Positions 1 through 23,032 of a DNA stretch of 24,000 nucleotides are shown here, piece by piece. The translations under genes were made by a program, and so were the position numbers. A model generated the notes under the pieces. The model made no database searches. It saw only the letters and a list, made by a program, of their open reading frames with translations, and was not told the DNA's origin. Source of the stretch: Eubacterium sp. 1001713B170207_170306_E7 (GTDB taxonomy: Bacteria; Bacillota; Clostridia; Eubacteriales; Eubacteriaceae); the NCBI RefSeq assembly GCF_015547515.1, contig NZ_JADMVE010000001.1:1064253-1088252 (forward strand), in the 5' to 3' direction. Position 1 is the stretch's first letter. Each line of letters opens with the position of its first letter.

Positions 1-35
1 TGGAAGAACGCTTATCCGGAAAGGAGCACGCATAA

Positions 36-1583
36 ATGTATAAAATAGGAATTGACGTTGGCGGCACCAATACTGACGCTGTTGTCGTAGATGAAAACCG
101 GAACATCATCGCCGGTATCAAGCACCCCACCTCTGAAGATATTTATTCCGGCATTCTGGGCGCTTTGAAGGATGTGCTCCGCGAAGCCGATATTGACCGG
201 TCAAAGGTCAATCAGGCCATGCTCGGCACTACCCAGTGTACCAATGCCATTGTGGAGCGTAAAAAACTGGCGCCAGTGGCTGTGATTCGGCTGGCTGCTC
301 CGGCAATGCAGGGCATCATGCCCATGGTGGACTGGCCCGTGGATTTAACTGATTTTGTCATTGCCACCACGACAGTGGCCGGGGGGTATGAGTTTGACGG
401 CAAAGAAATTGCCCCGCTGGATGAATGTGCTGTACGTGCCTTTTTTGAAAGTATCAAGGGCAAAACCCAGTCCATTGCTATTTCCTGCGTTTTCTCTCCT
501 GTGCGGAACGAGCACGAAGAGCGCTGCGCTCAGCTGGCCCGGGATGTGCTGGGGCCAGACGTTCACATTTCAAAATCCAGTGAAATCGGAACGTTAAGCT
601 TTGTTGAAAGAGAGAACGCGACCATTCTAAACGCCGCCCTGTACGCGGTTGCCGACAGCTTTACCGAGGGCTTTGCCAAAAGCCTGGCAGACGAAGGCAT
701 TGAAAACGCCGATATTTTTCTGAGCCAGAACGACGGAACCCTGATGACTATGGACTTCGCAAGGCGCTATCCCATTCTCACCATCGCCTGCGGCCCGACC
801 AACTCGATCCGCGGCGCCTCCTATCTGAGCCGTCTCCACGACGCTGTTGTCATTGACGTTGGCGGCACAACCACAGACTTTGGCGTTATCCAGCATGACT
901 TTCCGCGTGAAAGCAGTGTCGCCGCCACCATTGGCGGTGTACGGACAAACTTCCGAATGCCGGACGTTATCTCCATCGGCCTTGGCGGCGGCTCCATTGT
1001 CCGTGAAGAAAACGGTGAGATCACCGTGGGGCCAGACAGTGTGGGTTATCAGATCACTGAAAAAGCCCTGGTTTTCGGGGGGGATACCATGACGGCCACC
1101 GATATCGCTGTCCGCCTTGGTCTGGCCGAGGTGGGCGATCCTTCAAGAGCCGCTCTCATTGACCAGGATTTTGCCGAAAGGGCTATGGCTGTTATCCGTG
1201 AAATGATCGAGGACAGCATTGACCAGATGAAAATTTCCAATGATGATATCGACGTGGTCCTGGTGGGCGGCGGCTCCATCATTGTCCCGGAAGCGCTCGC
1301 AGGTACCCGCCAGGTAGCCAAGCCAGAATATTTCGGTATTGCCAATGCCATCGGCTCCGCCATCTCCAAGGTCAGCGGGACCTATGAAAAGCTGGTATCT
1401 TATGATGAAATCCCCAGGGATGAGGCTCTGGAAAACGCCCGCGCAGAGGCCTCAAGCCTGGCTGTTGAGGCCGGGGCGATCCCCGAGACCGTCGCCATCA
1501 TTGATGTTGAGGATGTTCCTCTGGCCTACTATCCCGGCAATACCAGCCGCTTAAAGGTCAAGGCGGCCGGTGATCTGGCCTAG
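36..1583 (+). CDS. hydantoinase/oxoprolinase-family (HyuA-like) protein
   Basis: 515-aa ORF with an AAAGGAG RBS upstream of the ATG. It has two sugar-kinase/hydantoinase-type phosphate-binding motifs (IGIDVGGTNTD near the N-terminus, VIDVGGTTTD mid-protein). It is GC-rich like the rest of the left flank. Confidence 0.8.
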   Translation: MYKIGIDVGGTNTDAVVVDENRNIIAGIKHPTSEDIYSGILGALKDVLREADIDRSKVNQAMLGTTQCTNAIVERKKLAPVAVIRLAAPAMQGIMPMVDWPVDLTDFVIATTTVAGGYEFDGKEIAPLDECAVRAFFESIKGKTQSIAISCVFSPVRNEHEERCAQLARDVLGPDVHISKSSEIGTLSFVERENATILNAALYAVADSFTEGFAKSLADEGIENADIFLSQNDGTLMTMDFARRYPILTIACGPTNSIRGASYLSRLHDAVVIDVGGTTTDFGVIQHDFPRESSVAATIGGVRTNFRMPDVISIGLGGGSIVREENGEITVGPDSVGYQITEKALVFGGDTMTATDIAVRLGLAEVGDPSRAALIDQDFAERAMAVIREMIEDSIDQMKISNDDIDVVLVGGGSIIVPEALAGTRQVAKPEYFGIANAIGSAISKVSGTYEKLVSYDEIPRDEALENARAEASSLAVEAGAIPETVAIIDVEDVPLAYYPGNTSRLKVKAAGDLA

Positions 1584-1603
1584 TTTTTTACGCTTTAGCC
1601 AAA

Positions 1604-1639
1604 GAGGGCCCCGGCTGTTTCGTGACAGCCGGGGCTCTT
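1604..1639. terminator. GC-rich hairpin between convergent genes (bidirectional terminator candidate)
   Basis: CCCCGGCTGT (1609-1618) pairs with ACAGCCGGGG (1625-1634) across a 6-nt loop. A T-rich run follows on the plus strand. The hairpin lies between the convergent 36-1583(+) and 1647-2447(-) genes. Confidence 0.6.
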
Positions 1640-1646
1640 GTCCTGT

Positions 1647-2447
1647 TTATTTTTTAACCGGGACATAAATCTCCGTAATATTTTCTTCTGGCCGAACCTG
1701 CGTGGGGTCTGTCTGGTAAATTTCATAGGGGGCTCCCGAAACCGTATAGCCTTCCTCCTCGATCCATTCCCTTATCTTTGCGTAAACTGATGGCAACTCT
1801 GTATAGGGTCCTTTTAAAACGGACACCGCACATGGGCCCCCCTCCAAAATACGGGTGCTTTCTTCCGCTTCCTTAATGGCGACTGCGTCCTCCATATCGT
1901 AGTTTTCAGGATTATAAACCTCATCGTGAAAAATACTCATGGGGCCGGCGGTCAGCGACAGCCCTTTCTCCTGAACGGTTTTCATCAGTTCCATAATATA
2001 TTTTTGCGAATCCTTGACATTCATTTTTTTCCTTATGGATAAAATGGGCATGGGTTTCGTTTCAACGAGCTTGACTTCAATCTGTTCTAAATAGGCCATA
2101 ATGTGTTTACCTCTTTCTAAATTTGAAATATCTTTTTCCAGCAGGGAGAGCAGCAGCTGATAATGCTGTGCCATCTCCCTCAGTCCAGTCTCCTTCTCTC
2201 TGATCTGCGAGAGAATAAAGGCATTATCCTCGGGATTCTTAAGCACTTCGGCAATTTCGTCCAGTGAGAAGCCGTACCATTTCAGCTTGCCTATGAGCAG
2301 GACCGTCTCCAGCTGGGTGGCCGAATAATAACGGTATCCGTTCTCATCATTGACATAAACCGGTTTGATCAGGCCGATTTCATCGTAATACCGCAGTGTT
2401 TTAGTGGTAACATTACTGATTTTTGAAAATGCACCAATGGTCAGCAT
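1647..2447 (-). CDS. MerR-family transcriptional regulator with C-terminal GyrI-like effector-binding domain (BmrR-like)
   Basis: The N-terminus MLTIGAFSKISNVTTKTLRYYDEIGL is a classic MerR HTH, followed by a coiled-coil linker and a ~150-aa GyrI-like C-terminal domain. I moved the start to the ATG at 2447, which has a GGGAGGAA RBS. The track ORF extends to 2519 without an RBS. Confidence 0.85.
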   Translation of the reverse strand: MLTIGAFSKISNVTTKTLRYYDEIGLIKPVYVNDENGYRYYSATQLETVLLIGKLKWYGFSLDEIAEVLKNPEDNAFILSQIREKETGLREMAQHYQLLLSLLEKDISNLERGKHIMAYLEQIEVKLVETKPMPILSIRKKMNVKDSQKYIMELMKTVQEKGLSLTAGPMSIFHDEVYNPENYDMEDAVAIKEAEESTRILEGGPCAVSVLKGPYTELPSVYAKIREWIEEEGYTVSGAPYEIYQTDPTQVRPEENITEIYVPVKK

Positions 2448-2540
2448 TGAGTTCCTCCCTTTGTGATTCATTGTTCGAACATGACTTAAGTATACACATT
2501 CCAGCCGCTGGAAAGTCAAGCGTTGTTTTAAAACTTTTTA

Positions 2541-2567
2541 AAAAAGCCTGCCTTTTACCCGGCAGGC
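2541..2567 (-). terminator. rho-independent terminator of the 2579-2896 gene
   Basis: GCCTGCC (2546-2552) pairs with GGCAGGC (2561-2567). A TTTTTT run follows on the minus strand (plus-strand A-run 2540-2545). Confidence 0.75.
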
Positions 2568-2578
2568 ATTATGCTGTT

Positions 2579-2896
2579 TTACTCAAACTTCATTTCAATA
2601 TCCGTCTTTAGAGCCAGTCCCGCTTCGGCCTCCATGGCCTTGATCACACCGACGGCTACCGGACAGGCCGGGTGCTTCATGTGCTTTGCGAAAATCTTAT
2701 ACACGGTGTTGCTGTCATATTTTTCTTTACAGCAGATGCCCAGCGCATCTAAGGGCTCTGCCAGGTCATCATTTACAGCCTTATAATGAGGGCACTCCGA
2801 TTCGACGGTCACCTTCACCTTGTAAGGCTTTTCGGTTTCAGCCTTGATGACGGTGTTAAAACCGCAGGGGCCGGCGTTTAATTTCAGGGTTGTCAT
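2579..2896 (-). CDS. small Cys-rich protein of unknown function (105 aa, 5 Cys)
   Basis: GGAG RBS upstream of the ATG at 2896, with its own terminator. Cys occur at positions 11, 35, 55, 56 and 78, including CPH, CC and ACP contexts. I do not recognise a family with confidence. Confidence 0.6.
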   Translation of the reverse strand: MTTLKLNAGPCGFNTVIKAETEKPYKVKVTVESECPHYKAVNDDLAEPLDALGICCKEKYDSNTVYKIFAKHMKHPACPVAVGVIKAMEAEAGLALKTDIEMKFE

Positions 2897-2984
2897 TTTC
2901 TTTTTACTCCTTCTTAAAATCTTACCCCTATCATATGCCTTTTTTCTCTAAAAAACAACCTTAAACTTTTTAATGGCCGGACAT

Positions 2985-3010
2985 CAAAAAAGCCCCCGGC
3001 GAACCGGGGA
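2985..3010 (-). terminator. rho-independent terminator of pstS
   Basis: CCCCGG (2994-2999) pairs with CCGGGG (3004-3009) across a CGAA tetraloop. TTTTTT follows on the minus strand (plus-strand A-run 2985-2990). Confidence 0.7.
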
Positions 3011-3032
3011 CAAGGGAAGGTGGAGAGCTTAT

Positions 3033-3884
3033 TTACTGTTCGAGCGCAACCTTGATGCCGCCTTCTTTTTCAACAATGGTCTGACCTTCATCGGTCATTA
3101 AGAAGTCTAAGAAAGCTTTTGTCTGGCTGTTAAGGCTGTCTGTTTTATAAACTGCCAGAAATGGTCTGGATACTGGGTAGCTCTTGTTTACAACATTATC
3201 GACAGTCGCTTCGACATTATCGACGGTTACTTTTTTAACGGTATTGTCTACAAAGGTTAAGGATACATAGCCAATGGCGTTTTCATTTCCGGCGACGGTT
3301 GACTGTACATTTCCGTTACCTTCCTTGATGGTAGCGTCCGGTTTTAATTTGTCTTCAAATTTTAACAGCTCTTCGACAGCAGAACGGGTACCGGAGCCAT
3401 CTTCTCTGGATACGACAACGATCGGCGCGTCATTTCCGCCAAGCTGGCTCCAGTTTGTAATCTCGCCCGTATAAATCCCGGTTAAATCCGCTGAGCTGAT
3501 GTTGGTCACCGGATTAGACGGGTGTGTGATCATGGCGATGCCGTCATAAGCAAAGACCAGCTCGGTCAGACCAGATTTTTCTTCATCCTTTAATTCTCTT
3601 GACGCACAGCCAAAAGCGTAGGTGCCTTCCGTGGCGCCCTTGATACCGTCTGATGATCCGGTACCGCTGTATGTAAATTTGACATCCGGGTTCTGGGCCG
3701 CAAACTCATCGCCTGCCGCTTCAATGATTTTCTGGACCGAGGTGGAGCCCCCGCCATTGATTTCACCCGAAATGGCCGCCGAGGAGCTTCCTGTGCTGTC
3801 TCCCCCGCCGCTGCATCCTGCAAATGCAAATGTTCCGACCACTAAAGCCATGGTCAGGCCTGCTAAATGTTTTTTTAATCCCAT
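3033..3884 (-). CDS. pstS: phosphate ABC transporter substrate-binding lipoprotein PstS
   Basis: 283 aa. Signal peptide with lipobox FAGC. It carries the PstS-family motifs GGGSTSV, SGTGSS and DGSGTR. AAAGGAGAAG RBS. Confidence 0.9.
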   Translation of the reverse strand: MGLKKHLAGLTMALVVGTFAFAGCSGGGDSTGSSSAAISGEINGGGSTSVQKIIEAAGDEFAAQNPDVKFTYSGTGSSDGIKGATEGTYAFGCASRELKDEEKSGLTELVFAYDGIAMITHPSNPVTNISSADLTGIYTGEITNWSQLGGNDAPIVVVSREDGSGTRSAVEELLKFEDKLKPDATIKEGNGNVQSTVAGNENAIGYVSLTFVDNTVKKVTVDNVEATVDNVVNKSYPVSRPFLAVYKTDSLNSQTKAFLDFLMTDEGQTIVEKEGGIKVALEQ

Positions 3885-3966
3885 TTCGTTTCTTCTCCTT
3901 TGATCTTTAGTTTCTCAAGTTGTGCTTAACTACGGGATTAATCATATCAGAGAAAAGCGGGCCTTT

Positions 3967-4005
3967 GGTTTTGAATTGGTAAAGAAAGGGTTAAAGCTCT
4001 GTTAA
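3967..4005 (-). promoter_or_regulatory. PhoP-box-like array upstream of pstS
   Basis: The minus strand reads TTAACA-gagct-TTAACC-ctttc-TTTACC-aattc-AAAACC. That is four TT(A/T)AC(A/C)-like hexamers at 11-bp periodicity, as in Bacillus PhoP boxes. A TATGAT -10 candidate lies about 20 nt downstream. Confidence 0.5.
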
Positions 4006-4025
4006 ATCAAAAAAGTGTCTCGAAC

Positions 4026-4063
4026 GTAAGCAACCCCGGCTTGGGGGAGCCGGGGTTGCTTAC
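4026..4063. terminator. perfect 15-bp GC-rich hairpin at the chromosome/island junction (insulating terminator candidate)
   Basis: GTAAGCAACCCCGGC (4026-4040) pairs with GCCGGGGTTGCTTAC (4049-4063). On the minus strand a TTTTTT run lies about 11 nt beyond the stem. It is the last GC-rich sequence before the AT-rich island. Confidence 0.55.
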
Positions 4064-4195
4064 AATAAAAGGTATAAGGAAAATTTTGGGGAGATGTAAG
4101 TAAGAGGTATGCATTAATAATATACCCTGATTTTATCATTTAAACCGCTAATATACGCCATTTATTTTGTTTTTTCTTTTTTTTCTAACAAAATT

Positions 4196-5452
4196 CTAAC
4201 ATACTTTGCTAATTACATCTTTCATATGCTGATCTTCTTGTTCATTTATTAATGTTACGATTTTATTTGGAATTTCATCCTGAATCTTTTCTTCGACATG
4301 TGCGTAAATATTCATTGTTGTATTAATATTTCCATGTCCCATATACTCCATGATCTCTCTTGGAGAAAAAAGTGGACTTCCATCTTTAGTCCGTGCATTA
4401 ATCATCAAAGAACAGCATGTATGTCTTAAATCATAAAAGCGAATCTTCCGAAATCCATTTCGCACAAGAACACTTTGAAAATAACTGCTTACTTTTGTTT
4501 CAAAGAAAGTTTTGCCATTTTCTTGTAGAAAAACAAAATCATGTTCCTGTTTTACATAACAGTTTCCATAATATCTTTTGTTAGCTTCTTGATTCTTTTT
4601 TACATTTTTGAAAATTTCGACTGCCTCTTTTGAAAGCTTAAATGATCTCCTACTGAATTCATTTTTTAATGCATCTTTGTACACCATCCGACCGTCTACC
4701 TGAACAGCACTGAAATTGATATCCATTCTTCCTTGTTTTAAATCAATAGACTGCCATCTTAAACCTAATAGCTCACTCGGCCTTAGACCATAATTTATTG
4801 CTATGTAAACCATGGGATACAGATAAAAAGGCCTAACAATATCTAAAACTGGTCTAACCTCATTAATTCTTAAATAGTCAAAACTACTTTTAAAATTCTT
4901 AGGATTATTTTTAATCTTATTTGGAACAATATACCTTGCTCTCTGATAAGGATTTTCTGTTATTAATTCATTTTCAACTGCTACGTCTAAAATACTTTTC
5001 AAAACACTTCTAATTGTTCTAACAGTCCTTGGATTTTTTCCTTCTTTAAATAATTGTTGGTAGAAAAATTCTAAGTGTCCTTTCTTTACTTCTCCTAAAG
5101 TTAACTTTAAAGGTTTGAAAATAGGAATAACATTTACTTTTATAATATTTTGATATCTCGCTATCGTGACTTCCGCATAACGAAAAGCATTTTCATCTAT
5201 CCATTTTAACGCATAATCTACAAATAAGATATCACAAGATGTGCAGAGTGAAAGTTCAAGTTCCCTCCGCTTTTCCTCAACTAATGAAGCAAGCTTATTC
5301 TTTTCCCGATCACTTCCGGTTTTTACCGGAATACCTGTTTTTAACCACGGCTGTTTTCTCTTTCCATCACCATCCTTATAATCACAGACCACATACCAAA
5401 AATTATTTTTCTTTTGCAACGTAGCTTTTACTTTAAATTCTTGCTTTTTCAT
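4196..5452 (-). CDS. int: tyrosine site-specific recombinase / integrase (Tn916/phage-integrase type)
   Basis: 418 aa with an AGGAG RBS. The N-terminal WYVVCDYKDGDGKRKQ segment looks like an arm-binding domain. Catalytic signature: R in GLRPSELLGLRW, H-x-x-R in LRHTCCS, and H...Y in MGHGNINTTMNIYAHV. Confidence 0.92.
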   Translation of the reverse strand: MKKQEFKVKATLQKKNNFWYVVCDYKDGDGKRKQPWLKTGIPVKTGSDREKNKLASLVEEKRRELELSLCTSCDILFVDYALKWIDENAFRYAEVTIARYQNIIKVNVIPIFKPLKLTLGEVKKGHLEFFYQQLFKEGKNPRTVRTIRSVLKSILDVAVENELITENPYQRARYIVPNKIKNNPKNFKSSFDYLRINEVRPVLDIVRPFYLYPMVYIAINYGLRPSELLGLRWQSIDLKQGRMDINFSAVQVDGRMVYKDALKNEFSRRSFKLSKEAVEIFKNVKKNQEANKRYYGNCYVKQEHDFVFLQENGKTFFETKVSSYFQSVLVRNGFRKIRFYDLRHTCCSLMINARTKDGSPLFSPREIMEYMGHGNINTTMNIYAHVEEKIQDEIPNKIVTLINEQEDQHMKDVISKVC

Positions 5453-5515: not shown

Positions 5516-5698
5516 TTATGCTTTACCAACGTTGGTATACTCGATCACTGCCGCTTTTTGAATAATCCAGTGTCCTGTCCAGTCTTTTTTAGCTTTTATC
5601 TGACCACTTTGCAGCAAGCGATAAGCTTTGTTTTTTCCGATCTTTAACATTTTCGTTAAATCTTGTACTAAAATAATATCGTCATATTGATTAAACAT
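5516..5698 (-). CDS. xis: excisionase / MerR-superfamily HTH_17 DNA-binding protein
   Basis: 60 aa with a GGTGG RBS, immediately upstream of int. LVQDLTKMLKIGKNKAYRLLQSGQI resembles the excisionase-type winged HTH. Confidence 0.8.
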   Translation of the reverse strand: MFNQYDDIILVQDLTKMLKIGKNKAYRLLQSGQIKAKKDWTGHWIIQKAAVIEYTNVGKA

Positions 5699-6439
5699 TT
5701 TAATACCACCTTTAAGAGTGATTTGTTATCTGAAATATTATTAGCCGGTTTGCCATACACCACCGGCAAGGCATTATCTGGATAAGGTTTTGGGTGAAAA
5801 AACCACGAAAGCAAAGCGAATCCATCTTTCTTCACTCCATATCACAAGAAGTGCAGCACGTAACCGTCGCATTGCCCTCTCTCCAGCGTCATCGCGAAAA
5901 ATCTACCACGATTTTTTTATAGCCATGGTTCATCGTCAAGCGCCCATTCTAACGTCGCTCCATGCCGGATTAAGGGTTTTACCCAGATAATCTTCATTCA
6001 GTTTTCAAAGACCAGGAAAACAATTGCTTCCAATCTGAAAGTTTTATTCGATTATAATCTTTAAAACTCCCTCTATATATACAAAGGAAAAAAAAGCATT
6101 TTTTAAACTAAATTTTTAAAAAAACGTCAAATTTTATTTATTCTTTAAGACTTTTTTAAGTTTTCTTGTTATGCATCATTTTTGAATATTCGTTCTCATA
6201 TTTTCACTTATGTCTGTTTCTAAAAATAAACAACTCCACAAGACAACATTTCATACTTGACTTTTTGTTGTTATCGTTATAAGATTATGCTAAGAAAACT
6301 TATGTTTGCCAATCATAAACAAAAGTTCTTTCACGCTTTTATGCCAACAATGAATTTATGTCTGGATAAAAATTAATAAGTGAGGTCCACGATGTTGAAC
6401 GTTTCTACAAAACAACTCTCACCTGGTACATCAGGGGAA

Positions 6440-7895
6440 ATGTCTGATCACATTTATCTCTGCATAGATTTAAAATCATTCTATGCCTCAGTGGAATGTG
6501 TTGAACGTGGTCTTGATCCTTTGACGACCAACCTGGTTGTCGCTGATGTGACGCGTACTCAGAAAACGATCTGCCTGGCTGTCTCCCCTTCTCTGAAAGC
6601 CTATGGCATTCCCGGCAGGCCCCGTCTTTTCGGGTTGAACAAAAATTAAAAGCAATCAAATTGCGAACAGGCGAGGAGATTGCCTATATTACCGCGTCTC
6701 CAAGAATGCAGCTTTACATTGACTACAGTGCCCGGATATATGCGATATATCTTCAATTGTCTCTGAAGAGGACATCCATGTATACAGTATCGACGAAGTT
6801 TTTATGGACTTAACCCATTACCTTTCGACCAATCGCAATAAAAACGGACACCCCATAACTGCTCGCGAGCTGGCAAAAATGATCATTCAGGACGTTTGGG
6901 CAGCTACGGGTATCACCGCTACTGCTGGTATCGGAACCAACCTTTATCTGGCCAAAATCGCTATGGATATTGTGGCAAAACATGTCAAAGCAGATTCAGA
7001 CGGCGTTCGGATTGCCGAGCTCAATGAAACAAACTACCGACAGCTTCTTTGGGATCACCGCCCGCTCACGGATTTCTGGCGTATCGGATGGGGCATTGCC
7101 AAAAGGCTTGAAAAAAACGGGCTCTACACGACGATGGGAGATATCGCCAGAATGAGCTTACAGGGCGCTGACACAAACGGGTATGGTGAAAATCTGCTTT
7201 TCAATGAATTTGGCATTGACGCAGAACTCCTCATTGATCATGCCTGGGGAATTGAACCCTGTACCATGGCCGACATCAAAAGCTATAAGCCCAGCACGCA
7301 CTCTATTTCCTCCGGGCAGGTGCATTCCCATGCCTATGATTTTGAAAAGGGACGGTTGATCGTCCAGGAAATGGTGGAGCTGCTGGTGTACGATCTGATT
7401 GAAAAAGGGCTGTCGACGTCCAGCGTAACCCTGCATATCGGCTATGATAAGGATGGCTTAAAAGAATCTCATTACCGCGGAGGAATTCACATGGATCATT
7501 TCGGGCGTGCAGTACCAAAGCCGGCGCACGGCACCGAAAAGTTAACCGACGCTGGTGGCCAAACGATCTACAGTCATTCAACCAAGAAAATTATGAACGC
7601 TGCCCTTAAGCTCTATGACCGAATCATTGACAGGAAGCTCATGCTGCGAAGGGTTTCTCTGACTTTCAATGATGTCGAAGCCACTGCTGACCATAAGGTA
7701 ACCTGTCGACAAGTCAGTATGTTCGCAGAAGATATCCTGGAAAAAGAGCAGGAAGCTCAAGAGCAAAGGATACAGCAGACGCTGCTTCAAATAAAGAAGA
7801 AATACGGAAACAATGCTATTTTCAAGGGCATGAACCTACAGGAGGGCGCAACGACGATGGAACGAAATCTTCAAATCGGTGGTCATAAAGCTTAA
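6440..7895 (+). pseudogene. Y-family (DinB/UmuC/ImpB-like) DNA polymerase gene interrupted by two apparent 1-nt deletions
   Basis: The N-terminus MSDHIYLCIDLKSFYASVECVERGLDP is in frame 2. VEQKLKAIKLRTGEEIAYITASPRMQLYIDYSARIYAIYLQ runs from 6634 in frame 1. VSEEDIHVYSIDEVFMDLTHYL... runs from 6759 in frame 0 to 7895. The shifts fall at about 6632-6633 (G-run) and about 6757-6758 (T-run). Confidence 0.8.
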
Positions 7896-7955: not shown

Positions 7956-8486
7956 TTAACCTTCAATCATTTTTCTTAATTTTTGTAAAATTCTTTTCTT
8001 CTGTTTGTATATTGTGTGGACAGAAACGTCCTGTCGGTTGGCTAACGCCTTCACTGTCTGATCTTCAAAATAAAGCGCTTTAATCAGTGTTGCTTCATCC
8101 TTATTTAGGCGAGATAATGCTTTCCTGAGCTCTTCAAACAACATACTTGCTTCAACAATTTTATTCACATCCACTTCCTTAAAGCTGATTGCCTCTTTTT
8201 CTCGATGTGTTTGTTCTTTTAAAGTCTCATAAGAAATCGCATAATATTCTTCATCTAATGCTTCTAAATAATCTTGCCGCTCCTTAGCGCGATAAAAATC
8301 TTGATAGTTCTGATAATCAACTTCCAGTAAAGCGCCCCCAATTGGTATAAACCATCTGCTGGAAAAGGCTTCTGGATCAAGTTCTTTCATCCTTTTTAAT
8401 TCACCATAAGTAATTTTATGATATTTTGAATGATCTTTTATATAGCAGGCCGCTTCCAGACTAAATTCTCTTGGTTTTCGTTTCAT
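7956..8486 (-). CDS. sigma-70 region-4-containing regulator (Tn916 orf7-like sigma/HTH protein)
   Basis: The C-terminus LNKDEATLIKALYFEDQTVKALANRQDVSVHTIYKQKKRILQKLRK is a sigma-70 region-4 HTH. I moved the start to the ATG at 8486, behind a GGAGGA RBS. The track ORF starts at a TTG at 8498. Confidence 0.7.
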   Translation of the reverse strand: MKRKPREFSLEAACYIKDHSKYHKITYGELKRMKELDPEAFSSRWFIPIGGALLEVDYQNYQDFYRAKERQDYLEALDEEYYAISYETLKEQTHREKEAISFKEVDVNKIVEASMLFEELRKALSRLNKDEATLIKALYFEDQTVKALANRQDVSVHTIYKQKKRILQKLRKMIEG

Positions 8487-8544
8487 TTTTTCCTCCAATC
8501 CATTTGTTTTTAAACAAACGAATTGGAGGCGGACCTCGGATATA

Positions 8545-8599
8545 AAAACACAAAAAAAGATAGAAAATGAAAGCTAAGTTGAACTTTTCATTTTCTATC
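8545..8599 (-). terminator. strong hairpin plus T-run upstream of the sigma-like gene (attenuator/insulator candidate)
   Basis: Perfect 14-bp arms: GATAGAAAATGAAA (8559-8572) and TTTCATTTTCTATC (8586-8599). On the minus strand TTTTTTTGTGTTTTT follows. It lies about 60 nt upstream of the 8486 start codon. Confidence 0.5.
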
Positions 8600-8774
8600 C
8601 TATTTAATCGTAAGCTATTAATAAAAAACAGCCGAAAAATATTCACTTTTTTAATTTTGTAAATTTATTATTTTTGTATGAAATATAACCTCTTTTTGTT
8701 AGTGCGATATATCGTACTCTTTGACTTTTCAAAAAGTATATAATAATTTTAAAGACACTGCTGGAGGACCCTTT

Positions 8775-9020
8775 ATGAATACTACCGAAGCAGTAATCCA
8801 ACGAATTAATGACCTTTGCCAAGAGAAGGGAATTACTTTTTATAAGCTTTCTTATCGGGCAGCTATGTCAAAATCCACCTTAATGAGTATCGTTGCAGGC
8901 AATAGCACGCCTACGATTAAGTCAATTGCATTAATTTGTCGTGGCCTTGATATAAGTGTAAGGGAATTTTTTAGTTCAGAATTATTTGACATTTGCGAAG
9001 AAGATGATGAGCTGCTTTAA
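8775..9020 (+). CDS. XRE-family helix-turn-helix transcriptional regulator
   Basis: The ATG at 8775 has a GGAGGA RBS. ITFYKLSYRAAMSKSTLMSIVAGNSTPTIKSIALICRGLDISVREFF is an Xre/Cro-type HTH. It is divergent from the sigma-like gene. Confidence 0.8.
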   Translation: MNTTEAVIQRINDLCQEKGITFYKLSYRAAMSKSTLMSIVAGNSTPTIKSIALICRGLDISVREFFSSELFDICEEDDELL

Positions 9021-9148: not shown

Positions 9149-9868
9149 ATGAATGTAATATTATGTGATGATGACCCTGGCTTTCTTAACGAGTTAAAAG
9201 ACGTACTTTTGCCTATTTACAAAAATGAGTACCCCTCAGCTAAAATAAGATGGTTTTTTAATGGGAATGATCTACTGTCATGGTATACACTTGAAGGCAA
9301 TACCATCGATATTCTTTATATCGATGTAGAGATGCCTGGATTTAATGGAATTGATGTTTTAAAATCCCTTCGCAATAACGGCTGTAAATGTTATTCTGTA
9401 TTCATTTCTTCATATATCAGTTATGTTGAGACCGCTCTGGATTATGATATTGTTCATTATTTAGTAAAACCTCTAAATATAAAAAAGGTTAGAGATGTCA
9501 CTAATAAAGTCATTTTAAAATATAAAAAACAGCATAAATGCATAGAACTCTCTTCAAATAATAAGCATTCATTAATAGAAGTGCACTCAATCATTTATGT
9601 AGAATCAAATTTTAGGTCCCTTATTTATCATACAACTCAGGGAAATTATACTGTGAATGGGAAGATATCTGATATTGAAAATAAGCTGATCCCTTACAAT
9701 TTTCTTCGCACACATAAAAGCTATCTTGTAAACATGGATTATGTTTTAAACTACGAGGGCTACAAGTTTAATCTTTTAGATGGAATGACTGCTGATATCA
9801 GCCATACTAAACGCTCACTGATCATAGGAAAATACAAACAATATTTATATGATAAACTTATCAACTAA
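9149..9868 (+). CDS. agrA: LytTR-family response regulator (AgrA-like)
   Basis: 239 aa with a GAAGGAG RBS. REC domain (ILCDDD..., phospho-acceptor context ILYIDVEMPGFNG). C-terminal LytTR domain (FLRTHKSYLVNMDYV). Confidence 0.9.
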   Translation: MNVILCDDDPGFLNELKDVLLPIYKNEYPSAKIRWFFNGNDLLSWYTLEGNTIDILYIDVEMPGFNGIDVLKSLRNNGCKCYSVFISSYISYVETALDYDIVHYLVKPLNIKKVRDVTNKVILKYKKQHKCIELSSNNKHSLIEVHSIIYVESNFRSLIYHTTQGNYTVNGKISDIENKLIPYNFLRTHKSYLVNMDYVLNYEGYKFNLLDGMTADISHTKRSLIIGKYKQYLYDKLIN

Positions 9869-9875
9869 CTAAGTT

Positions 9876-9925
9876 ATAAGGCGGGTGATACAATAAATTG
9901 CATCACCCGCCTTATTTATTTTTCG
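9876..9925 (+). terminator. rho-independent terminator after agrA (abuts the agrB stop)
   Basis: ATAAGGCGGGTGAT (9876-9889) pairs with ATCACCCGCCTTAT (9902-9915), followed by TTATTTTT. Confidence 0.7.
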
Positions 9926-10494
9926 TTAAATAAATAACCTGCCAAAGCAAAGAGAGCGATTATTAACAGCGATGTGCTAATTGAATATAAATATTGGTAC
10001 AATGTAGTCCCTAAAACTAAAATCATAGAAATACATACATAAACCACTGATCTTAACCATAATTTTTGTCTCTTTCGACAAATCTCATCATCAGAGTAAC
10101 TTGCATTTTTATGCTCTACCGGAGCAATTTTCCATACAATAAAAAAATAAAGAATTTGGTAGATAATAGATAATAAAGTATAAGCATTTCTAGGCGTATA
10201 TTTTATTGTCAAAATATACACGCAAAAGACTAATACTGTTTTTATTGAACAGTTTAGTCTATTTTTCGCATGGTAACTTCCAGTTAAACCACTTAATGAG
10301 ATATAGCAAACAAAATATATAATCGTTTGATACACATGTGAGGTTAATATACCAATACCTAACATTACTAAAAAATTTACCAAAAAGAAAATTATTTGCT
10401 CCATCCCAAACATAACGATTTGTTCATTTTCTGCTCTGATAAGCCTAAGTTCTTTGCACTTATGTGCAAAGCTTAAAGCTACTTGTGTAATCAT
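9916..10494 (-). CDS. agrB: AgrB-like accessory gene regulator B (membrane endopeptidase that processes AgrD)
   Basis: 192 aa and polytopic. The GSYHAKNRLNC motif has His and Cys 7 residues apart, the same spacing as the catalytic His/Cys pair of staphylococcal AgrB. Its start codon overlaps the agrD stop. Confidence 0.85.
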   Translation of the reverse strand: MITQVALSFAHKCKELRLIRAENEQIVMFGMEQIIFFLVNFLVMLGIGILTSHVYQTIIYFVCYISLSGLTGSYHAKNRLNCSIKTVLVFCVYILTIKYTPRNAYTLLSIIYQILYFFIVWKIAPVEHKNASYSDDEICRKRQKLWLRSVVYVCISMILVLGTTLYQYLYSISTSLLIIALFALAGYLFNEK

Positions 10495-10661
10495 AGATCT
10501 TTAATTGAAAAATTTTCTTTGGCTTTTGGTATCTCCGGTTGGTATTTCCAAATTAAACACGTGTCACCTGTTTGCAATACAGTAAATATTAATGCCGACA
10601 TCACTGCCATTCCTTTAAAAAAGATGTTATTAGCTACTTTTTTAAATTTTTCCTTTTTCAT
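10491..10661 (-). CDS. agrD: AgrD-like autoinducing peptide precursor (56 aa, not in the ORF track)
   Basis: Hand translation of the minus strand gives MKKEKFKKVANNIFFKGMAVMSALIFTVLQTGDTCLIWKYQPEIPKAKENFSIKDL. An AGGAGGAG RBS lies 7 nt upstream. There is a single Cys core followed by a YQPEIPK charged tail. The TGA stop overlaps the agrB ATG (ATGA). Confidence 0.75.
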   Translation of the reverse strand: MKKEKFKKVANNIFFKGMAVMSALIFTVLQTGDTCLIWKYQPEIPKAKENFSIKDL

Positions 10662-10742
10662 GTGATTACTCCTCCTAACTATATTTTACATCTTAAATAT
10701 ATAGCTTTATATTCTTTAAAGCAATATTCTATGCATAAAAAT

Positions 10743-10794
10743 AAAGTTTAGTGTAAAAATCATAAAGTTCCTTAAAGCAGAAACAGTGTATAAT
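10743..10794 (+). promoter_or_regulatory. candidate LytTR (AgrA) direct repeats plus -10 upstream of agrC
   Basis: AAAGTTTAG (10743-10751) fits the LytTR consensus [TA][AC][CA]GTTN[AG][TG]. AAAGTTCCT (10764-10772) starts exactly 21 bp later. TATAAT lies at 10789-10794, and the -35 position is occupied by the second repeat. Confidence 0.4.
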
Positions 10795-10828
10795 AGTATT
10801 GAAATGATATTTTAGTGGAGGTTGATAA

Positions 10829-12109
10829 ATGACCGTAGATATTATATGCTTACTAGTCAAAAACTATATTGAAATAATATTTTTAGATTCTGTTTTAATA
10901 AAAAAGCCAATAAGAAAAAAAATTGTCTTTTACTTATATTTTTTATTCTTATCAATATCTTTTACAGTGTTCATGTTTAAATATAATCCCAGTACTGTTT
11001 TATCCACTTCTATAAGTATTGCTATAATGACATCATATTTATTGTTTTATAAAGATAGCTGGCTCAAAAAATTTATATATTTAGTTATTTTAATTGTACT
11101 TGTTGCGGTATCAGAGTTATTGTCTGGCCTAATTCTATTAACAATGGATATTTCGGTCAACACATTTGAGACAAGCCTTCTTTACGGCTTTATTCTCATT
11201 TCACTTACCAGTATTTTACTTTACTCGAATGTTTTACTAGTAAAGATATTAAGTAACAAAGATGTTACAATTAAAATGAATATTTTGTTGCTATTTTATC
11301 CAATAAGCTCGATTTTAATTCTTTATGCACTTTACTATATTGTTATGTTTAATCTAGACAGTGAAATTAAATACGTAATATTTTTCATAGTCGCTTTATT
11401 GGTACTGTTATCAAATTTATTTTTAGTATATTTAATCACTTATCTTGTAAAAAGCAAAACGGACAAGCTACTTTTAGAATATTATGAAAAATGTGAATCG
11501 ATCGAAAAATCATATTTAAGAGAACTTGATGAATCAAAGCAAGAAATAAAACAAATTAATCACGATCTTAAATCACATTTTTTACATTTATTAGGTCTGA
11601 TCAATGCACAAAATTACGATGGTTGCCGTATTTATGTTATGAAGTTTCTTGATCTTTCTAAGCGGATTGATTATCTATTCTCAACTGGTTACGATGGGCT
11701 TGATGCTGTTTTGTCATCAAAAGCTATCATGTCAAAGTCAAAAAATATTTCTTTAAAAACAGTAATTGCAATGCCAACGCGAGAAACCTTAAAAATAAAT
11801 GAAGCAGATATTTCTATCATTAGTTCAAATATCTTAGATAACGCGATTGAGGCCACTGAGCAATGCCTGATAAATGATCGTATTATTGATTTTCAAATAT
11901 GTTATGATGGTAATCTTTCTTATCTGAGAATTTGTTGCCAAAATCCAACAATAAATACTTCAACATCTTACAAAACCACCAAAAAAGATAAAGAAAACCA
12001 TGGCTACGGTTTGACGATTATTAAAAAGATTGCAGAACAATGGGATGGAATGGTACAATATGAAACTACAAATGGTATTTTTTCTATTATTGTATCTTTA
12101 CACAATTAG
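10829..12109 (+). CDS. agrC: AgrC-like (HPK10-type) membrane sensor histidine kinase
   Basis: 426 aa with a GGAGG RBS. About 6-7 N-terminal TM helices. H-box INHDLKSHF, N-box NILDNAIEA, G-box HGYGL. Confidence 0.85.
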   Translation: MTVDIICLLVKNYIEIIFLDSVLIKKPIRKKIVFYLYFLFLSISFTVFMFKYNPSTVLSTSISIAIMTSYLLFYKDSWLKKFIYLVILIVLVAVSELLSGLILLTMDISVNTFETSLLYGFILISLTSILLYSNVLLVKILSNKDVTIKMNILLLFYPISSILILYALYYIVMFNLDSEIKYVIFFIVALLVLLSNLFLVYLITYLVKSKTDKLLLEYYEKCESIEKSYLRELDESKQEIKQINHDLKSHFLHLLGLINAQNYDGCRIYVMKFLDLSKRIDYLFSTGYDGLDAVLSSKAIMSKSKNISLKTVIAMPTRETLKINEADISIISSNILDNAIEATEQCLINDRIIDFQICYDGNLSYLRICCQNPTINTSTSYKTTKKDKENHGYGLTIIKKIAEQWDGMVQYETTNGIFSIIVSLHN

Positions 12110-14413: not shown

Positions 14414-15049
14414 TCAATTTATAATTTTTTTATCTTTTATTTGATATATTTCATCACATAATATTGATATATCTTTTGAATTATGACTTGTAAATATTAA
14501 TGTCCCACCGTTATCCACGTATTTTAATAATATTTCATATATCAAATCAACCGTATCACTATCTAGCCCATTCGTTGGTTCATCCAAAATTAATAATTCT
14601 GGATTTTCGAAAATAGCCTGTGCAATTCGAAGTTTTTGTAGCATTCCTAAAGAATAATCTTTAACTTTTATTTCGCTATACTTATCAAGTTTAAAAGTAC
14701 GTAAAATGTCTTGGATTTGTTTTTCTGTTACAACATTTTTAATTTCTGATATTATTTTCAGGTTTTCGTACCCGGTTAAAGATTCAATAAAAGATGGATT
14801 ATCTATTACAATACCTGAGTTTTGTATAAACTGTATATCCCTTCGAATTATAGAATTATTATACTTCACTATCCCCTCATCTAAACAATAAAAACCAACA
14901 ATCAATTTAAGTAAAACACTTTTTCCTGATCCATTATTCCCTATAATTCCATATTTCTTTCCACGAATAACTTTTAAATTTATATTTTCTAACACAATTT
15001 TGTTATGAAATGACTTCTTACCATCTATAATTTCAATTAAATATTTCAA
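14414..15049 (-). CDS. ABC transporter ATP-binding protein
   Basis: 211 aa. TTG start behind a GGAGA RBS. Walker A GNNGSGKS, signature YSLGMLQKL, Walker B LLILDEP, H-loop TSHN. Confidence 0.9.
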   Translation of the reverse strand: MKYLIEIIDGKKSFHNKIVLENINLKVIRGKKYGIIGNNGSGKSVLLKLIVGFYCLDEGIVKYNNSIIRRDIQFIQNSGIVIDNPSFIESLTGYENLKIISEIKNVVTEKQIQDILRTFKLDKYSEIKVKDYSLGMLQKLRIAQAIFENPELLILDEPTNGLDSDTVDLIYEILLKYVDNGGTLIFTSHNSKDISILCDEIYQIKDKKIIN

Positions 15050-15148: not shown

Positions 15149-15739
15149 TTAAAAATTTAGGTCTGTTAATTTAATTATTTTATGCAATACAATTGCAATA
15201 GTAAATGTAATGATATAAGATATTGATATGCAAATAGTGTTCATTCCAAAGTAAGAGGTGATAAATATAAAGGGTGTCGGAACCGCGAGTATCATCGATA
15301 TAAAAACATATACTAAAAGAACAATTAACGTTTTAATCTTACCGTATTTTATGAATAACAATGCTTCTAAAAATCCAAAAAGGTTCATATTAACAAATGT
15401 AAATAGTGTAAAATATAATAGATCCTGTATCGAGAGTGGTGCAATTTTTGTATTGAGTATATTTCCAAAATAGTATGGAAAAACACATAAAATTATTACA
15501 AAACAACTAAGCTTTAAATTTTTTTTTATTGAATATTTATAATAACTTTTTAAAGTACCATATCGAATTAAAGAAAAATAACGACTCATTTTAGGAGGAA
15601 AAAAATTACAAATAATAAAAATGCCATATATAATTAATGTACTAAAAAAAATACTAAAAAACCAAGTTGGTTTTGTAATGAAACCTAGTAAACCAAAAAC
15701 TAACCATGTTAATAAACCAATCCTTTTATTAATAGCCAT
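15149..15739 (-). CDS. small polytopic membrane protein (putative ABC-2/LanG-like permease subunit)
   Basis: 196 aa with about 5-6 hydrophobic helices and a GGAGAGG RBS. It overlaps the upstream gene by 11 nt. No family is recognised by eye. Confidence 0.65.
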   Translation of the reverse strand: MAINKRIGLLTWLVFGLLGFITKPTWFFSIFFSTLIIYGIFIICNFFPPKMSRYFSLIRYGTLKSYYKYSIKKNLKLSCFVIILCVFPYYFGNILNTKIAPLSIQDLLYFTLFTFVNMNLFGFLEALLFIKYGKIKTLIVLLVYVFISMILAVPTPFIFITSYFGMNTICISISYIITFTIAIVLHKIIKLTDLNF

Positions 15740-16538
15740 CTATATCGCCTCTCCTTTTTAGATATCTTTGAATATATGCAACAAAAATAATCGGTGGCAC
15801 AAATGGAAATAATATTACCCATAATGGTTGACCATTCTGATATGAAGTAAATGATTGAATAATTGTCGGTGATAAAGCAAAGACTTTAAAACAAATACCG
15901 AAAATTATTGAGAAAATATAATAATACAGTAACGGAATTATTATTGATAGGTATTTCTTTTTTGTAATGCACACAATAGAATTAGAAAAAAGGCTATATA
16001 TGAAACAAAATACGAAATACTTAAGGATTCCTTCTATAAAATAATACATGTATAAATGCTCCGTTGAAAAATTTTTTCCAAATATAAAATCAAATGAAAT
16101 TCTTGGTATTTCAGTATAATTCTTAGTAACAAATATACCAATGATGAAAAAAATCAAATATGCAATTAGAAATGTCAAGGCAGTATAAAGTGCATTAATA
16201 AAAAGTGCTTTACGAATAGTTTTTATATAGGTTTTATTTCTAGAAAAACAGTATATAAAATAACCTTCCTTTTCTTGATAAAAACTTAATGATAATATAG
16301 AACAAAAAATAGGTAAAATTAGCATGGAATAATTAAACGATGTACTAATATAACTATCAAAGTTAAGATAATGCTCGAGTAAAAATATTTTATTATCAAT
16401 GCCATCGTTATCGAAAATTATTCTTAATAAATAAAAATCATAACTACTAAATAAAGATAAAAAGGTTCCAATCAAAAAGCATAAAAAAAGAGTTACTCTA
16501 TACTTGTTTATTATCCGATATTTTGAAATTAATTTCAT
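15729..16538 (-). CDS. polytopic membrane protein (putative ABC-2/LanE-like permease subunit)
   Basis: I chose the ATG at 16538 (MKLISKYR...) behind an AAGAGG RBS. About 6 hydrophobic helices. It is translationally coupled to the next gene. Confidence 0.65.
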   Translation of the reverse strand: MKLISKYRIINKYRVTLFLCFLIGTFLSLFSSYDFYLLRIIFDNDGIDNKIFLLEHYLNFDSYISTSFNYSMLILPIFCSILSLSFYQEKEGYFIYCFSRNKTYIKTIRKALFINALYTALTFLIAYLIFFIIGIFVTKNYTEIPRISFDFIFGKNFSTEHLYMYYFIEGILKYFVFCFIYSLFSNSIVCITKKKYLSIIIPLLYYYIFSIIFGICFKVFALSPTIIQSFTSYQNGQPLWVILFPFVPPIIFVAYIQRYLKRRGDIDGY

Positions 16539-16667
16539 AGTGCAAACCTCTTTTGTATAAAATATATTATAGTATAAAATGAAATAGAGCATATCTACTA
16601 AAGTCTAACTTCTTTACTTGTAATCCTAAAAATATAGTATTTGAAATTCTTACTCTAGCTTTTATGG

Positions 16668-16716: not shown

Positions 16717-17259
16717 CTAAAATGGAGACCAGGTGCCTTCACAATACTCATAAGAATCCCAGCTATTTTCTCTGACAAACATCATTTGATAAGCGTAGTT
16801 CTTTGTTGCTGTGGACCATCCAGAGTTTGCTGATTGAGCGGCAACTTTGCACGCACCTCTTGCATAACCATCTGAATTAAGTAAATTTGTAACTAATACC
16901 AATGAATTCCCACCGGTTGCGTATTTGAAAGTTACATAATACTCTTGAGTATCCTCTTGTTTTGTTTGAAATGTACTGTAACCACGGTTTGTACCACTTA
17001 CTTGTCCGCTCCACGAATGTACAAACCACATTCTAGGAGAAATTGATTCGTCAAAAATTTCATAGGTTTCCTGACCAGGATTAGCCTCCACAACATCTTT
17101 GATCTTTTTATCTAGATCTGGTTTATCGCCTAAACCTTCGGAAATAATCGGCTGCTCCATTTTGTCTGGACTTTGAACTTCCATTTCATTAGCAAATACT
17201 GGTACAGCAACAAATAAAGCTAACAAAAGTGTGCTAACGCTAACAATTAACTTTTTCAT
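16717..17259 (-). CDS. Sec-secreted protein of unknown family (candidate bacteriocin/toxin-like effector)
   Basis: I chose the ATG at 17259. Signal peptide MKKLIVSVSTLLLALFVAVPVFA with a predicted cut before NE. An acidic ~55-aa linker precedes a ~110-aa W/Y/G/S-rich C-terminal domain with two Cys. Confidence 0.7.
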   Translation of the reverse strand: MKKLIVSVSTLLLALFVAVPVFANEMEVQSPDKMEQPIISEGLGDKPDLDKKIKDVVEANPGQETYEIFDESISPRMWFVHSWSGQVSGTNRGYSTFQTKQEDTQEYYVTFKYATGGNSLVLVTNLLNSDGYARGACKVAAQSANSGWSTATKNYAYQMMFVRENSWDSYEYCEGTWSPF

Positions 17260-17373
17260 TTTAGTATCCTTTCTATGAATTAAATACAAATATCCAATAT
17301 TAGGTATTTATTTTACATTTCAATGGAATCACCTTCTTTTTTTTGAGTAATTACAAATTAATTTGTTGATTGC

Positions 17374-19045: not shown

Positions 19046-19260
19046 GAAAATCTTTCCACTCCTTTGTTTCTGTATCTTTTTCTTAGCAGGTTTTATTGAT
19101 TGAGTAATCTCCAAAATTGTATAATCAGATAACTCGTTTTTCATAACTTTTTCTCTTTTTTAAATCAACATTTTGTCTTATGATTCTTTTGACATAACTA
19201 TTTAATAATTATTTTTTCATGATTATCATACTAATCTAAAATTTCCTGGATTCCACAACC

Positions 19261-19689
19261 TTATCTCATTTTTTTATCAGCTTTTGAGGATATATTCCGG
19301 ATATAACCATAATCATGTCCTAATTCTATAGATATTTCAACTAAGCTTTTCCCTAAATAACGATGTGCATAGAAAACTTTTTTTTCTAAACTTCCCATAT
19401 GATTAATTGCTTCTTCTATCGTTTTTTTTGTTTTATTTAATAAATAAATTTCTCTGTCTTTTTCTTCGATTTTTTTTTGTAATAAACATATTTCCTGTTC
19501 AATGGAAATTCGTTCTTCAATGTGCTTGTAAGAAATAAATTTTTTCTTTTCAAATAACCTTTCTTTTCTTCTTATATAGCGATCTTTTTCAGCTTGCTGA
19601 ATTGCTAATTCCTGTTTTAAATCTACTATATTTATATCTTTATAAGTTTTGCTAGGCTTTTCTTTATCCTTTTTTTGCCGCATATTCAT
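19261..19689 (-). CDS. coiled-coil protein with C-terminal sigma-70 region-4-like HTH (phage late-regulator-like)
   Basis: 142 aa. LEKKVFYAHRYLGKSLVEISIELGHDYGYIRNISSKADKK resembles a sigma region 4. The RBS is weak. Confidence 0.55.
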   Translation of the reverse strand: MNMRQKKDKEKPSKTYKDINIVDLKQELAIQQAEKDRYIRRKERLFEKKKFISYKHIEERISIEQEICLLQKKIEEKDREIYLLNKTKKTIEEAINHMGSLEKKVFYAHRYLGKSLVEISIELGHDYGYIRNISSKADKKMR

Positions 19690-19795
19690 CTTTATTTTTA
19701 GGAACCTTTCTCAATAATAAAAAGTCAGATTGACAAAATGCTTTTACTCAAATCCTTATTATTAATATCTATATAACTATACTAAAACTAATCAT

Positions 19796-20434: not shown

Positions 20435-20471
20435 AGTTTAACCCCTATACTTAAATATTAAATAATTCAAG

Positions 20472-20497: not shown

Positions 20498-20501
20498 AAA
20501 A

Positions 20502-23000: not shown

Positions 23001-23032
23001 GCTCTCTGTCATAATAATGAGGTGATGCTTAT

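Follow-up and report, generated by a model that had tools for sequence, protein, structure and literature searches.

A split agr-type quorum-sensing cassette with a linked LytTR regulator, probably an exchangeable module on a Eubacterium integrative island

The 24,000-nt stretch of Eubacterium sp. 1001713B170207_170306_E7 analysed here (the window, whose numbering all coordinates follow) carries at 9149-12109 the genes of an agr-type system. We propose that these genes form a functional quorum-sensing cassette based on an autoinducing peptide (AIP), and that the cassette is an exchangeable module on a phage-derived integrative island of the Eubacterium limosum/callanderi group. We give this reading, which is built on sequence comparison, a probability of roughly 60%. 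Related loci are cited by label where they have to be told apart (L001, L004, L005, L011, L017, L018, L019, L022, L024 and L030), and the gene called agrA in the original prediction will be referred to as RR1. The module and the two genes that precede it comprise the following features:

7956-8498, - strand: sigma-70-family factor, similar to the extracytoplasmic function (ECF) type; TIGR02937 46.7 bits against a cut-off of 42.9, Sigma70_r4; divergent from Xre-RR1
8775-9020, + strand: Xre-type helix-turn-helix (HTH) gene, 81 aa; HTH_26 E 3.3e-7; GGAGG and ATG at 8775; precedes RR1
9149-9868, + strand: RR1, 239 aa; Response_reg E 2.3e-13 and LytTR E 5.9e-15
9876-9915: bidirectional terminator hairpin between the converging RR1 and agrB, from fold energy and shuffles
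9916-10494, - strand: agrB, predicted AgrD-processing membrane peptidase, 192 aa; PF04647 E 3.1e-28
10491-10661, - strand: agrD, predicted AIP precursor, 56 aa; upstream of agrB and translationally coupled to it
10662-10828: agrD/agrC divergent control region, 167 bp
10743-10772, + strand: candidate LytTR binding site, direct repeats matching a generic LytTR consensus pair
10829-12109, + strand: agrC, predicted AIP sensor histidine kinase, 426 aa; HATPase_c_5 (PF14501) E 1.5e-18

All four agr open reading frames (ORFs) lie exactly where the original prediction had placed them, and its reading of them as AgrA-, AgrB- and AgrC-like proteins is borne out by family models, with RR1 combining REC and LytTR domains, AgrB matching PF04647 and AgrC being a GHKL kinase with HATPase_c_5. 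The genes do not form a single colinear agrB-agrD-agrC-agrA transcription unit: their order is A, B, D, C on strands +, -, -, +, with agrD 5' of agrB. The split layout of convergent and divergent genes in at least three transcription units that had been predicted is therefore present, including the terminator between RR1 and agrB and the shared 167-bp region between agrD and agrC. The hairpin folds at -25.2 kcal/mol on the + strand, where a U-run follows it, and at -30.4 kcal/mol on the - strand (z-scores -7.6 and -8.7), and none of 200 shuffled sequences folds as well. In the window agrC is apparently monocistronic. The PGAP annotation names only AgrB as such, the kinase being labelled 'GHKL domain-containing', the regulator 'LytTR family' and AgrD 'hypothetical'. 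Compared with their relatives, the four agr genes and the Xre gene have ratios of nonsynonymous to synonymous substitution (dN/dS) of 0.05-0.31, indicating purifying selection.

AgrB scores 98.8 bits against a PF04647 cut-off of 23, has about five hydrophobic segments and shows a dN/dS of 0.21-0.31. In an alignment of 41 diverse family representatives, the AgrB of phage phiCDHM1 included, the only invariant columns are G72, H75 and C82, the last two having the catalytic-type spacing H75-x6-C82; we take them to be the equivalents of S. aureus H77 and C84. The score of 34.9 against the NCBIfam AgrB equivalog model falls far short of its cut-off of 282. Identity to any sequence outside the island clade is at most 41%, and the nearest 50%-cluster representatives beyond the close group stand at about 40%.

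The 56-aa ORF upstream of agrB has no match in Pfam and remains below threshold for the AgrD family TIGR04223 (E 0.022, 14.9 against 19 bits, residues 26-47). Notwithstanding this score it is a real agrD: a GGAGG ribosome-binding site precedes it, the stop codon of agrD and the start codon of agrB overlap in ATGA, Cys35 and the follower are conserved in relatives and dN/dS is 0.05-0.24. A hydrophobic segment (residues 13-31) is followed by a C35-x4 ring position and then by YQPEIP. Every related locus retains Cys35, the x-Q-P-x-x-P follower and the C-terminal NFSIKDL, whereas the ring residues vary, reading CLIWK, CFVWK, CLIWF, CFIWI and CFFIS across cassettes. This form agrees with the clostridial AIPs tabulated in PMC12312760, and the follower with the Pro-X-X-Pro motif described in PMC8748961.

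AgrC has about six hydrophobic segments within residues 1-209, and its H245, N box (N334-E341), H391/G392/G394 and G407 show little or no variation among 27 homologs (dN/dS 0.14-0.15). In the RR1 alignment D59, K107 and the D7/D8 pocket are invariant, and the dN/dS is 0.10. RR1 adjoins agrB in every island-borne member, and the Xre gene precedes RR1 in every relative, directly 5' of it in L001, L004, L005, L017 and L019. The window contains no other histidine kinase or LytTR regulator that we could find.

The region between agrD and agrC provides further insight into how the cassette might be controlled. A pair of direct repeats, AAAGTTTAG-N12-AAAGTTCCT, occupies 10743-10772 and ends 16 nt before a TATAAT hexamer at 10789-10794. 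This hexamer is preceded by TG, and the position of its -35 element is poor and overlapped by the second repeat. LytTR repeats placed over a poor -35 element are typical of activator-dependent promoters, and the agrC promoter fits this type. The generic consensus pair matches once in the 24-kb window, and by our own arithmetic the chance of a site landing in the 167-bp spacer is about 0.004. The first half-site is kept in L017, and a perfect pair lies 5' of agrB in the distant locus L030. A search of the window with 12- and 13-bp spacers and up to two mismatches gives nothing above chance outside the agr intergenic region, and no pair is evident for the agrDB promoter; no further LytTR site was found on the island, so that the sequence points to no island regulon and the outputs proposed below are inferred. 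The same spacer contains a second repeat, TTC(T/C)TTAAAGCA with the palindrome CTTTAAAG, at 10712-10723 and 10768-10779, the two copies being 56 bp apart and one of them overlapping the second LytTR half-site; we considered this repeat as a possible Xre operator. Scans of the window with Rfam and for tRNA genes are both empty, and no RNAIII-like element is found.

The closest relatives of the cassette point to a mobile module. AgrB homologs at 81-93% identity are found on metagenomic and Eubacterium contigs, in the gene order of the window and beside int/xis, and the order Xre-RR1 -> <- agrB-agrD / agrC -> recurs in islands inserted in at least four places (purH/TetR, radical-SAM/MatE, adenylosuccinate synthase and pstS), one related island having an unrelated integrase. 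As the same order stands at different chromosomal sites, it is a trait of the island and not of a core-genome locus. More diverged cassettes in L017 and L019, with AgrC 36-43% identical, show the order sigma / Xre-RR1 -> <- agrB-agrD / agrC -> together with a second regulator, RR2, which is discussed below.

Comparison of these islands shows that the cassette has been exchanged as a unit between conserved island backbones, carrying different AIP rings. Against L017 the int-xis-polymerase-sigma backbone is 79-83% identical, and nucleotide identity collapses at 8512, where the agr cassette starts. The backbone ends with the sigma-factor gene, whose product keeps 77-81% identity in L022, L005 and L017, including where identity in the agr cassette falls to 38-53%. 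In the comparison with L005 the break is at 10776, inside the agrD/agrC spacer, with RR1 at 87%, AgrB at 81%, AgrD at 64% and AgrC at 44% identity; between cassette types AgrC is 36-44% identical. Among islands of the window type, homology ends at the agrC stop codon. The conserved unit is larger than the four agr genes, and also includes the sigma-factor and Xre genes. Two palindromes lie in the sigma/Xre spacer, a perfect 14-bp inverted repeat, GATAGAAAATGAAA...TTTCATTTTCTATC, at 8560-8600, and AGTGCGATATATCGTACT at 8701-8718, which ends 3 nt 5' of a TTGACT hexamer; both are possible Xre operators.

The split layout had been described as unusual, and this stands in part. Distant AgrB relatives (26-31% identity) lie in colinear RR-HK-AgrB operons (response regulator, histidine kinase, AgrB) and the phiCDHM1 set is also colinear, so that the split layout is specific to this clade; within the clade, however, it is conserved across an island family and is not peculiar to this island. 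A chromosomal, non-island relative beside a his operon (L018:9099-13494) has a divergent agrB-agrD / agrC core lacking RR1, after which come genes for a truncated GHKL protein and a protein with LytTR only. A search of 185,579 GTDB species representatives, which was pattern-limited, found no close AgrB relative, and none was found in IMG/VR; a scan of JGI metagenomes gave only six distant AgrB loci. AgrC has no match in 50,697 phage records or in a plasmid database, and AgrB matches in phage and plasmid databases only at 28% identity or less, although agrB is seen on large Paraclostridium and Clostridioides plasmids.

The surroundings of the module identify the island. Bases 1-4173 are host DNA (49% GC), 87% identical to E. 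callanderi FD with a PstS protein at 97%, and homology to that genome stops at 4173, 22 bp from the integrase stop, which places the left junction at 4173/4174. GC content is 29% in the agr module and 33% in the island from this junction to the holin, against 49% in the Eubacterium flanks, and E. callanderi FD lacks the island beside pstS. The element has a tyrosine integrase and an excisionase-like gene at one end, foreign GC content and variable presence and insertion site, as integrative elements do, in agreement with the prediction that the agr genes are cargo of a foreign, integrase-bearing island. The int and excisionase-like genes lie 3.5-5 kb upstream of the module, much as the predicted distance of about 4 kb; the claim that the module directly abuts insertion sequence (IS) debris holds only loosely, the IS110-family fragment being 1.4 kb past agrC. 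Beyond the module, the island has these features:

4196-5452, - strand: tyrosine integrase at the left island end; Phage_integrase E 5.6e-23, phrog_1 E 1.2e-57
5516-5698, - strand: excisionase-like HTH_17 gene; TIGR01764 excise domain E 3e-4
6380-7895, + strand: broken Y-family (ImpB/UmuC-like) polymerase gene, in pieces of 89 aa and 363 aa
12110-19155, mixed strands: variable cargo region of about 7 kb, starting at the agrC stop codon
13569-13763: IS110-family fragment
14414-15049: ABC ATPase, closest to the lantibiotic-protection type
15149-16592: two multi-transmembrane (multi-TM) proteins
16717-17289: Sec-signal protein, 190 aa
18426-18854: DUF772 transposase piece
19261-22475, - strand: conserved right-hand block of a sigma-like 142-aa, a 212-aa and a 657-aa protein (Pfam, NCBIfam, PHROG)
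20502-22475, - strand: the 657-aa protein, PG_binding_1 and Rv2525c-like glycoside-hydrolase-like; phrog_15213 E 1e-207
22677-24000, + strand: 107-aa protein, then holin, then endolysin
23033-23266, + strand: holin
23266-24000, + strand: M15/PG_binding endolysin, complete

The left junction is not repeated anywhere else in the window over 14 nt or more, and with no right attachment site (attR) within it the right end of the island must lie beyond base 24000. From int to the holin/endolysin genes there are no replication, packaging, head or tail genes in the window, nor in L022 or L024; lysis genes and phrog_15213 are the only phage-like content, which is less than a complete temperate prophage. 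PADLOC returns generic ABC and HTH matches only on the window. The sigma factor resembles neither gp38, the phiCDHM1 'sigma', nor the second sigma-like ORF, and its matches in the Protein Data Bank (PDB) are uninformative. At the position of the island E. callanderi FD has a different insert of low GC content (about 35%) with DUF4279 and DUF1905 genes (L011:7000-10000), so the region upstream of pstS may be an integration hotspot.

The cargo region has essentially no nucleotide or translated similarity to L001, L004, L005 or L017, and the sequence between agrC and the IS110 fragment has no assignable content; the region of IS debris has no nucleotide match among plasmids. Conservation resumes at 19155-19258, the right-hand block being 90-94% identical in nucleotides to L001, L022 and L024. 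Sec-signal proteins of 160-190 aa occur together with multi-TM proteins in the cargo of three islands, and the cargo of the window looks like a bacteriocin/immunity set. The 190-aa protein is distantly related to a 163-aa secreted protein of L024 (E 1e-7), and a 188-aa protein of L022 is similar to a 168-aa protein of L024. In L017 and L005 the cargo contains nonribosomal peptide synthetase (NRPS) and phosphopantetheinyl transferase (PPTase) genes instead. That of L017 (14339-21323, 27% GC) comprises an NRPS-like gene (AMP-binding/PP-binding/thioesterase), an MFS transporter, an ATP-grasp enzyme, an arginase and a transglutaminase-core protein, and is a small biosynthetic cluster beside the agr cassette.

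Some details of the lysis genes are recorded here. The M15 endolysin has 58% GC, against 33% for the island and the adjoining holin, and the gene of the 657-aa hydrolase is split into ORFs of 472 aa and 124 aa in L022. Related islands on metagenomic contigs are without exception cut off at the holin or less than 200 bp into the M15 endolysin, so that a repeat or a junction variable between strains may lie at this point. In L022 (2750-3085), L024 (2471-2800) and L017 (2381-2638) the integrase is bordered on its outer side by a stand-alone Peptidase_M15_3 gene (85-111 aa, about 60% GC); these relatives represent two different insertion sites, and the window has no such gene. We considered whether these could be endolysin ends duplicated at attachment sites and rejected this, as they are stand-alone, on the wrong strand and without detectable nucleotide similarity to the endolysin of the window.

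Several observations weigh against a functional cassette in which AgrC signals to RR1. RR1 matches no NCBIfam equivalog, the AgrA-specific models included, and phmmer finds no match of RR1, AgrB or AgrC to the solved staphylococcal Agr proteins, nor of RR1 to a full-length REC+LytTR regulator in the PDB. In L017, L019 and L005 the second LytTR regulator, RR2, directly follows agrC (L017:12296-13024; L019:11324-12028; L005:3797-4555), and there RR2 rather than RR1 looks like the cognate AgrA. In L005 RR1 is 87% identical to that of the window and yet AgrC only 44%, which argues against tight co-evolution of the two. Support for the LytTR pair is modest, with 0.51 sites expected per window at up to one mismatch (the expectation is 0.06 when the pattern is relaxed after the fact), and its half-sites are not strictly kept, GTT being replaced by ATT or TAT in the L005-7 group and in L017. 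Finally, this copy of the island is partly decayed: the polymerase, intact at 499 aa in L022, L024 and L017, is broken, the 158-167-aa ORF next to it in relatives has been deleted (the window has nothing that corresponds to L022 6560-7081) and IS remnants are present.

Because of RR2, the claim that the set is complete and includes agrA depends on RR1 being the partner of AgrC, as orthologs of RR1 coexist with RR2 in these three relatives. RR1 of the window is 95-87% identical to its counterparts in close island relatives and 54% and 51% identical to RR1 of L017 and L019, against 36-38% to the agrC-linked RR2 of L005 and L017 and about 25% to that of L019; the agrA of the window is thus the ortholog of RR1 and not of RR2. 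There is no remnant of RR2 3' of agrC in the window, whose lineage either lost RR2 or never had it. The cassette ancestrally appears to have had both regulators, and the split layout is therefore a two-regulator architecture from which one regulator is missing, rather than a rearrangement of the agrBDCA operon. With RR2 absent from this lineage, RR1 is the only candidate partner of AgrC on the island, and it is on this that we base the proposed pairing. In L005 a phosphopantetheinyl transferase gene lies between agrC and RR2.

The same facts allow a different interpretation, which we find rather unlikely but which is the strongest competitor: that the agr genes are a three-gene agrD-agrB/agrC set as in phiCDHM1, from which RR2 was lost with a swap of cargo, and that RR1 belongs to a separate Xre-RR1-sigma switch with another input, leaving AgrC to signal to a host regulator or to nothing. 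The place of RR2 and its low identity to RR1 (25-38%) fit this, as does the end of window-type homology exactly at the agrC stop, where RR2 would be. The L005 hybrid joins window-like RR1, AgrB and AgrD to an unrelated AgrC-RR2, and phage agr sets lacking agrA have been published (PMC3901668; PMC11945551). Against it, RR1 and agrB stay together in every island-borne cassette, and RR1 is swapped together with agrBD and agrC relative to the backbone, as the breakpoint at 8512 indicates; both RR1 and AgrC are under strong purifying selection in islands without RR2; no other histidine kinase is found on the island; and a LytTR-type candidate site lies in the agr control region.

An inert passenger, that is, a decaying prophage remnant whose agr genes are no longer expressed or useful in the host, seems improbable. 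The broken polymerase and deleted neighbouring ORF, the IS110 and DUF772 transposase fragments, the lack of replication or morphogenesis genes and the absence of RR2 would be expected of such a remnant, but the four agr ORFs and the Xre, sigma, int and xis genes are all full length with intact motifs, the low dN/dS values speak for selection, ribosome-binding sites, ATGA coupling and terminator are preserved, and identical proteins occur in several Eubacterium genomes. That this is an ordinary core-genome agr locus of the genus, as close homologs annotated in several Eubacterium genomes ('MULTISPECIES' entries included) might suggest, is effectively refuted by a GC content of 29% against 49% in the host flanks, by its absence from the pstS site in E. 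callanderi FD, by related copies at different insertion sites that are always beside int/xis, and by the lack of a close AgrB relative in the pattern-limited scan of GTDB representatives.

For the functional cassette that we favour, a plausible model is as follows. The agrD-agrB operon would give rise to a 56-aa precursor, which AgrB, through its predicted catalytic H75 and C82, would cut after the ring and cyclise to a thiolactone AIP with the predicted ring C-L-I-W-K. The exported AIP would be sensed by AgrC with its approximately six transmembrane segments, leading to autophosphorylation on H245 and transfer of the phosphate to D59 of RR1, the sole LytTR regulator on the island, encoded across agrDB in the Xre-RR1 unit. 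Phosphorylated RR1 would then bind the direct repeats at 10743-10772, abutting the -35 region of the agrC promoter, so that the sensor, and possibly also the divergent agrDB promoter, would be under positive feedback. The most likely outputs would be the adjacent sigma factor, the variable cargo of secreted and membrane proteins, or both.

A further step, which we offer as speculation and think on the whole unlikely to be right, is that the islands of this family may use the agr cassette to communicate among themselves, in the manner of arbitrium or Rap-Phr but through a cyclic AIP and a two-component relay. The cassette occupies a fixed slot, with the Xre/sigma switch on one side and variable cargo on the other, int/xis and holin-endolysin bracketing the element, and it is swapped between otherwise 80%-identical backbones with ring variants (CLIWK, CFVWK, CLIWF, CFIWI) that may, in such a system, be distinct pherotypes. 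Phosphorylated RR1 would act via the island sigma factor and tie the timing of island-specific behaviour to how dense the population bearing that type of island is, whether this behaviour be expression of the secreted-protein/immunity cargo, release dependent on the lysis module, or excision.

With agrBDCA of S. aureus the cassette shares four protein roles, namely an AgrB peptidase with conserved His/Cys, a small AgrD that has a Cys in its 5-residue ring position and a Pro in its follower, a REC+LytTR regulator and a polytopic GHKL kinase of the HPK10 type; candidate LytTR-type direct repeats with 12-bp spacing likewise lie beside a promoter with a poor -35. It differs in the order RR -> <- agrB-agrD / agrC -> with agrD 5' of agrB, in the lack of an RNAIII-like element in the Rfam scan, in proteins too divergent for phmmer and in its place on a mobile island. 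Variants closer in layout are known from clostridia, with separate agrBD and agrCA operons in C. acetobutylicum, agrD1B1 and agr2 in C. difficile, and agrD1-C1-B1 without agrA in C. autoethanogenum (PMC12312760, PMC8748961, PMC3901668). Split operons, agrD before agrB, missing or unlinked regulators and a Q-P-x-x-P follower are thus shared with these (PMC12312760; PMC8748961; PMC3901668), and the predicted ring C-L-I-W-K resembles the listed rings CPWII and CLWFT. Unlike them, the window has its regulator apart from the kinase, on the far side of agrDB, where it shares an operon-like unit with an Xre gene, and its relatives have two LytTR regulators flanking the cassette.

The agr3 genes of phiCDHM1 (agrC-agrB-agrD), together with agrB-bearing phages and phage-plasmids, likewise place agr genes on a temperate mobile element with GC content below that of the surroundings, and in phiCDHM1 too agr lies beside a lysis module, small regulators and a putative sigma gene being close by. 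However, the phiCDHM1 operon is colinear and has no response regulator, whereas the element described here encodes a LytTR regulator; the phiCDHM1 AgrB is only 28% identical to that of the window, and the window element shows no structural or replication genes within the window. Arbitrium (AimP/AimR) and the Rap-Phr systems of phages and integrative and conjugative elements (ICEs) resemble it in being signalling cassettes at a fixed position in a mobile-element family whose signal and receptor diversify (here five rings, and AgrC at 36-44%), but use linear peptides and cytoplasmic receptors in place of the predicted cyclic thiolactone and two-component system.

Split agrBD/agrCA operons, agrD before agrB, agr sets without agrA and phage agr genes are already documented (PMC12312760, PMC8748961, PMC3901668, PMC11945551), and the published mobile sets, those of phiCDHM1 and of Paenibacillus and Bacillus phages, have no response regulator and are assumed to borrow that of the host (PMC3901668; PMC11945551). 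What is new here is a mobile island that carries a LytTR regulator along with agrDB and agrC, in a layout that puts this regulator across agrDB in an Xre-linked unit, together with the two-regulator architecture of the relatives and the exchange of cassettes between conserved island backbones as distinct pherotypes. As synthesis, sensor and LytTR regulator stand together on small islands of gut Eubacterium, the circuit could be self-contained. Should island functions be under its control, it would match the communication systems of phages and ICEs as a Gram-positive system based on a cyclic peptide, and would also offer a tractable case in a cultured human-gut acetogen, and the presence of both RR1 and RR2 in relatives makes a concrete and testable case of branched agr output.

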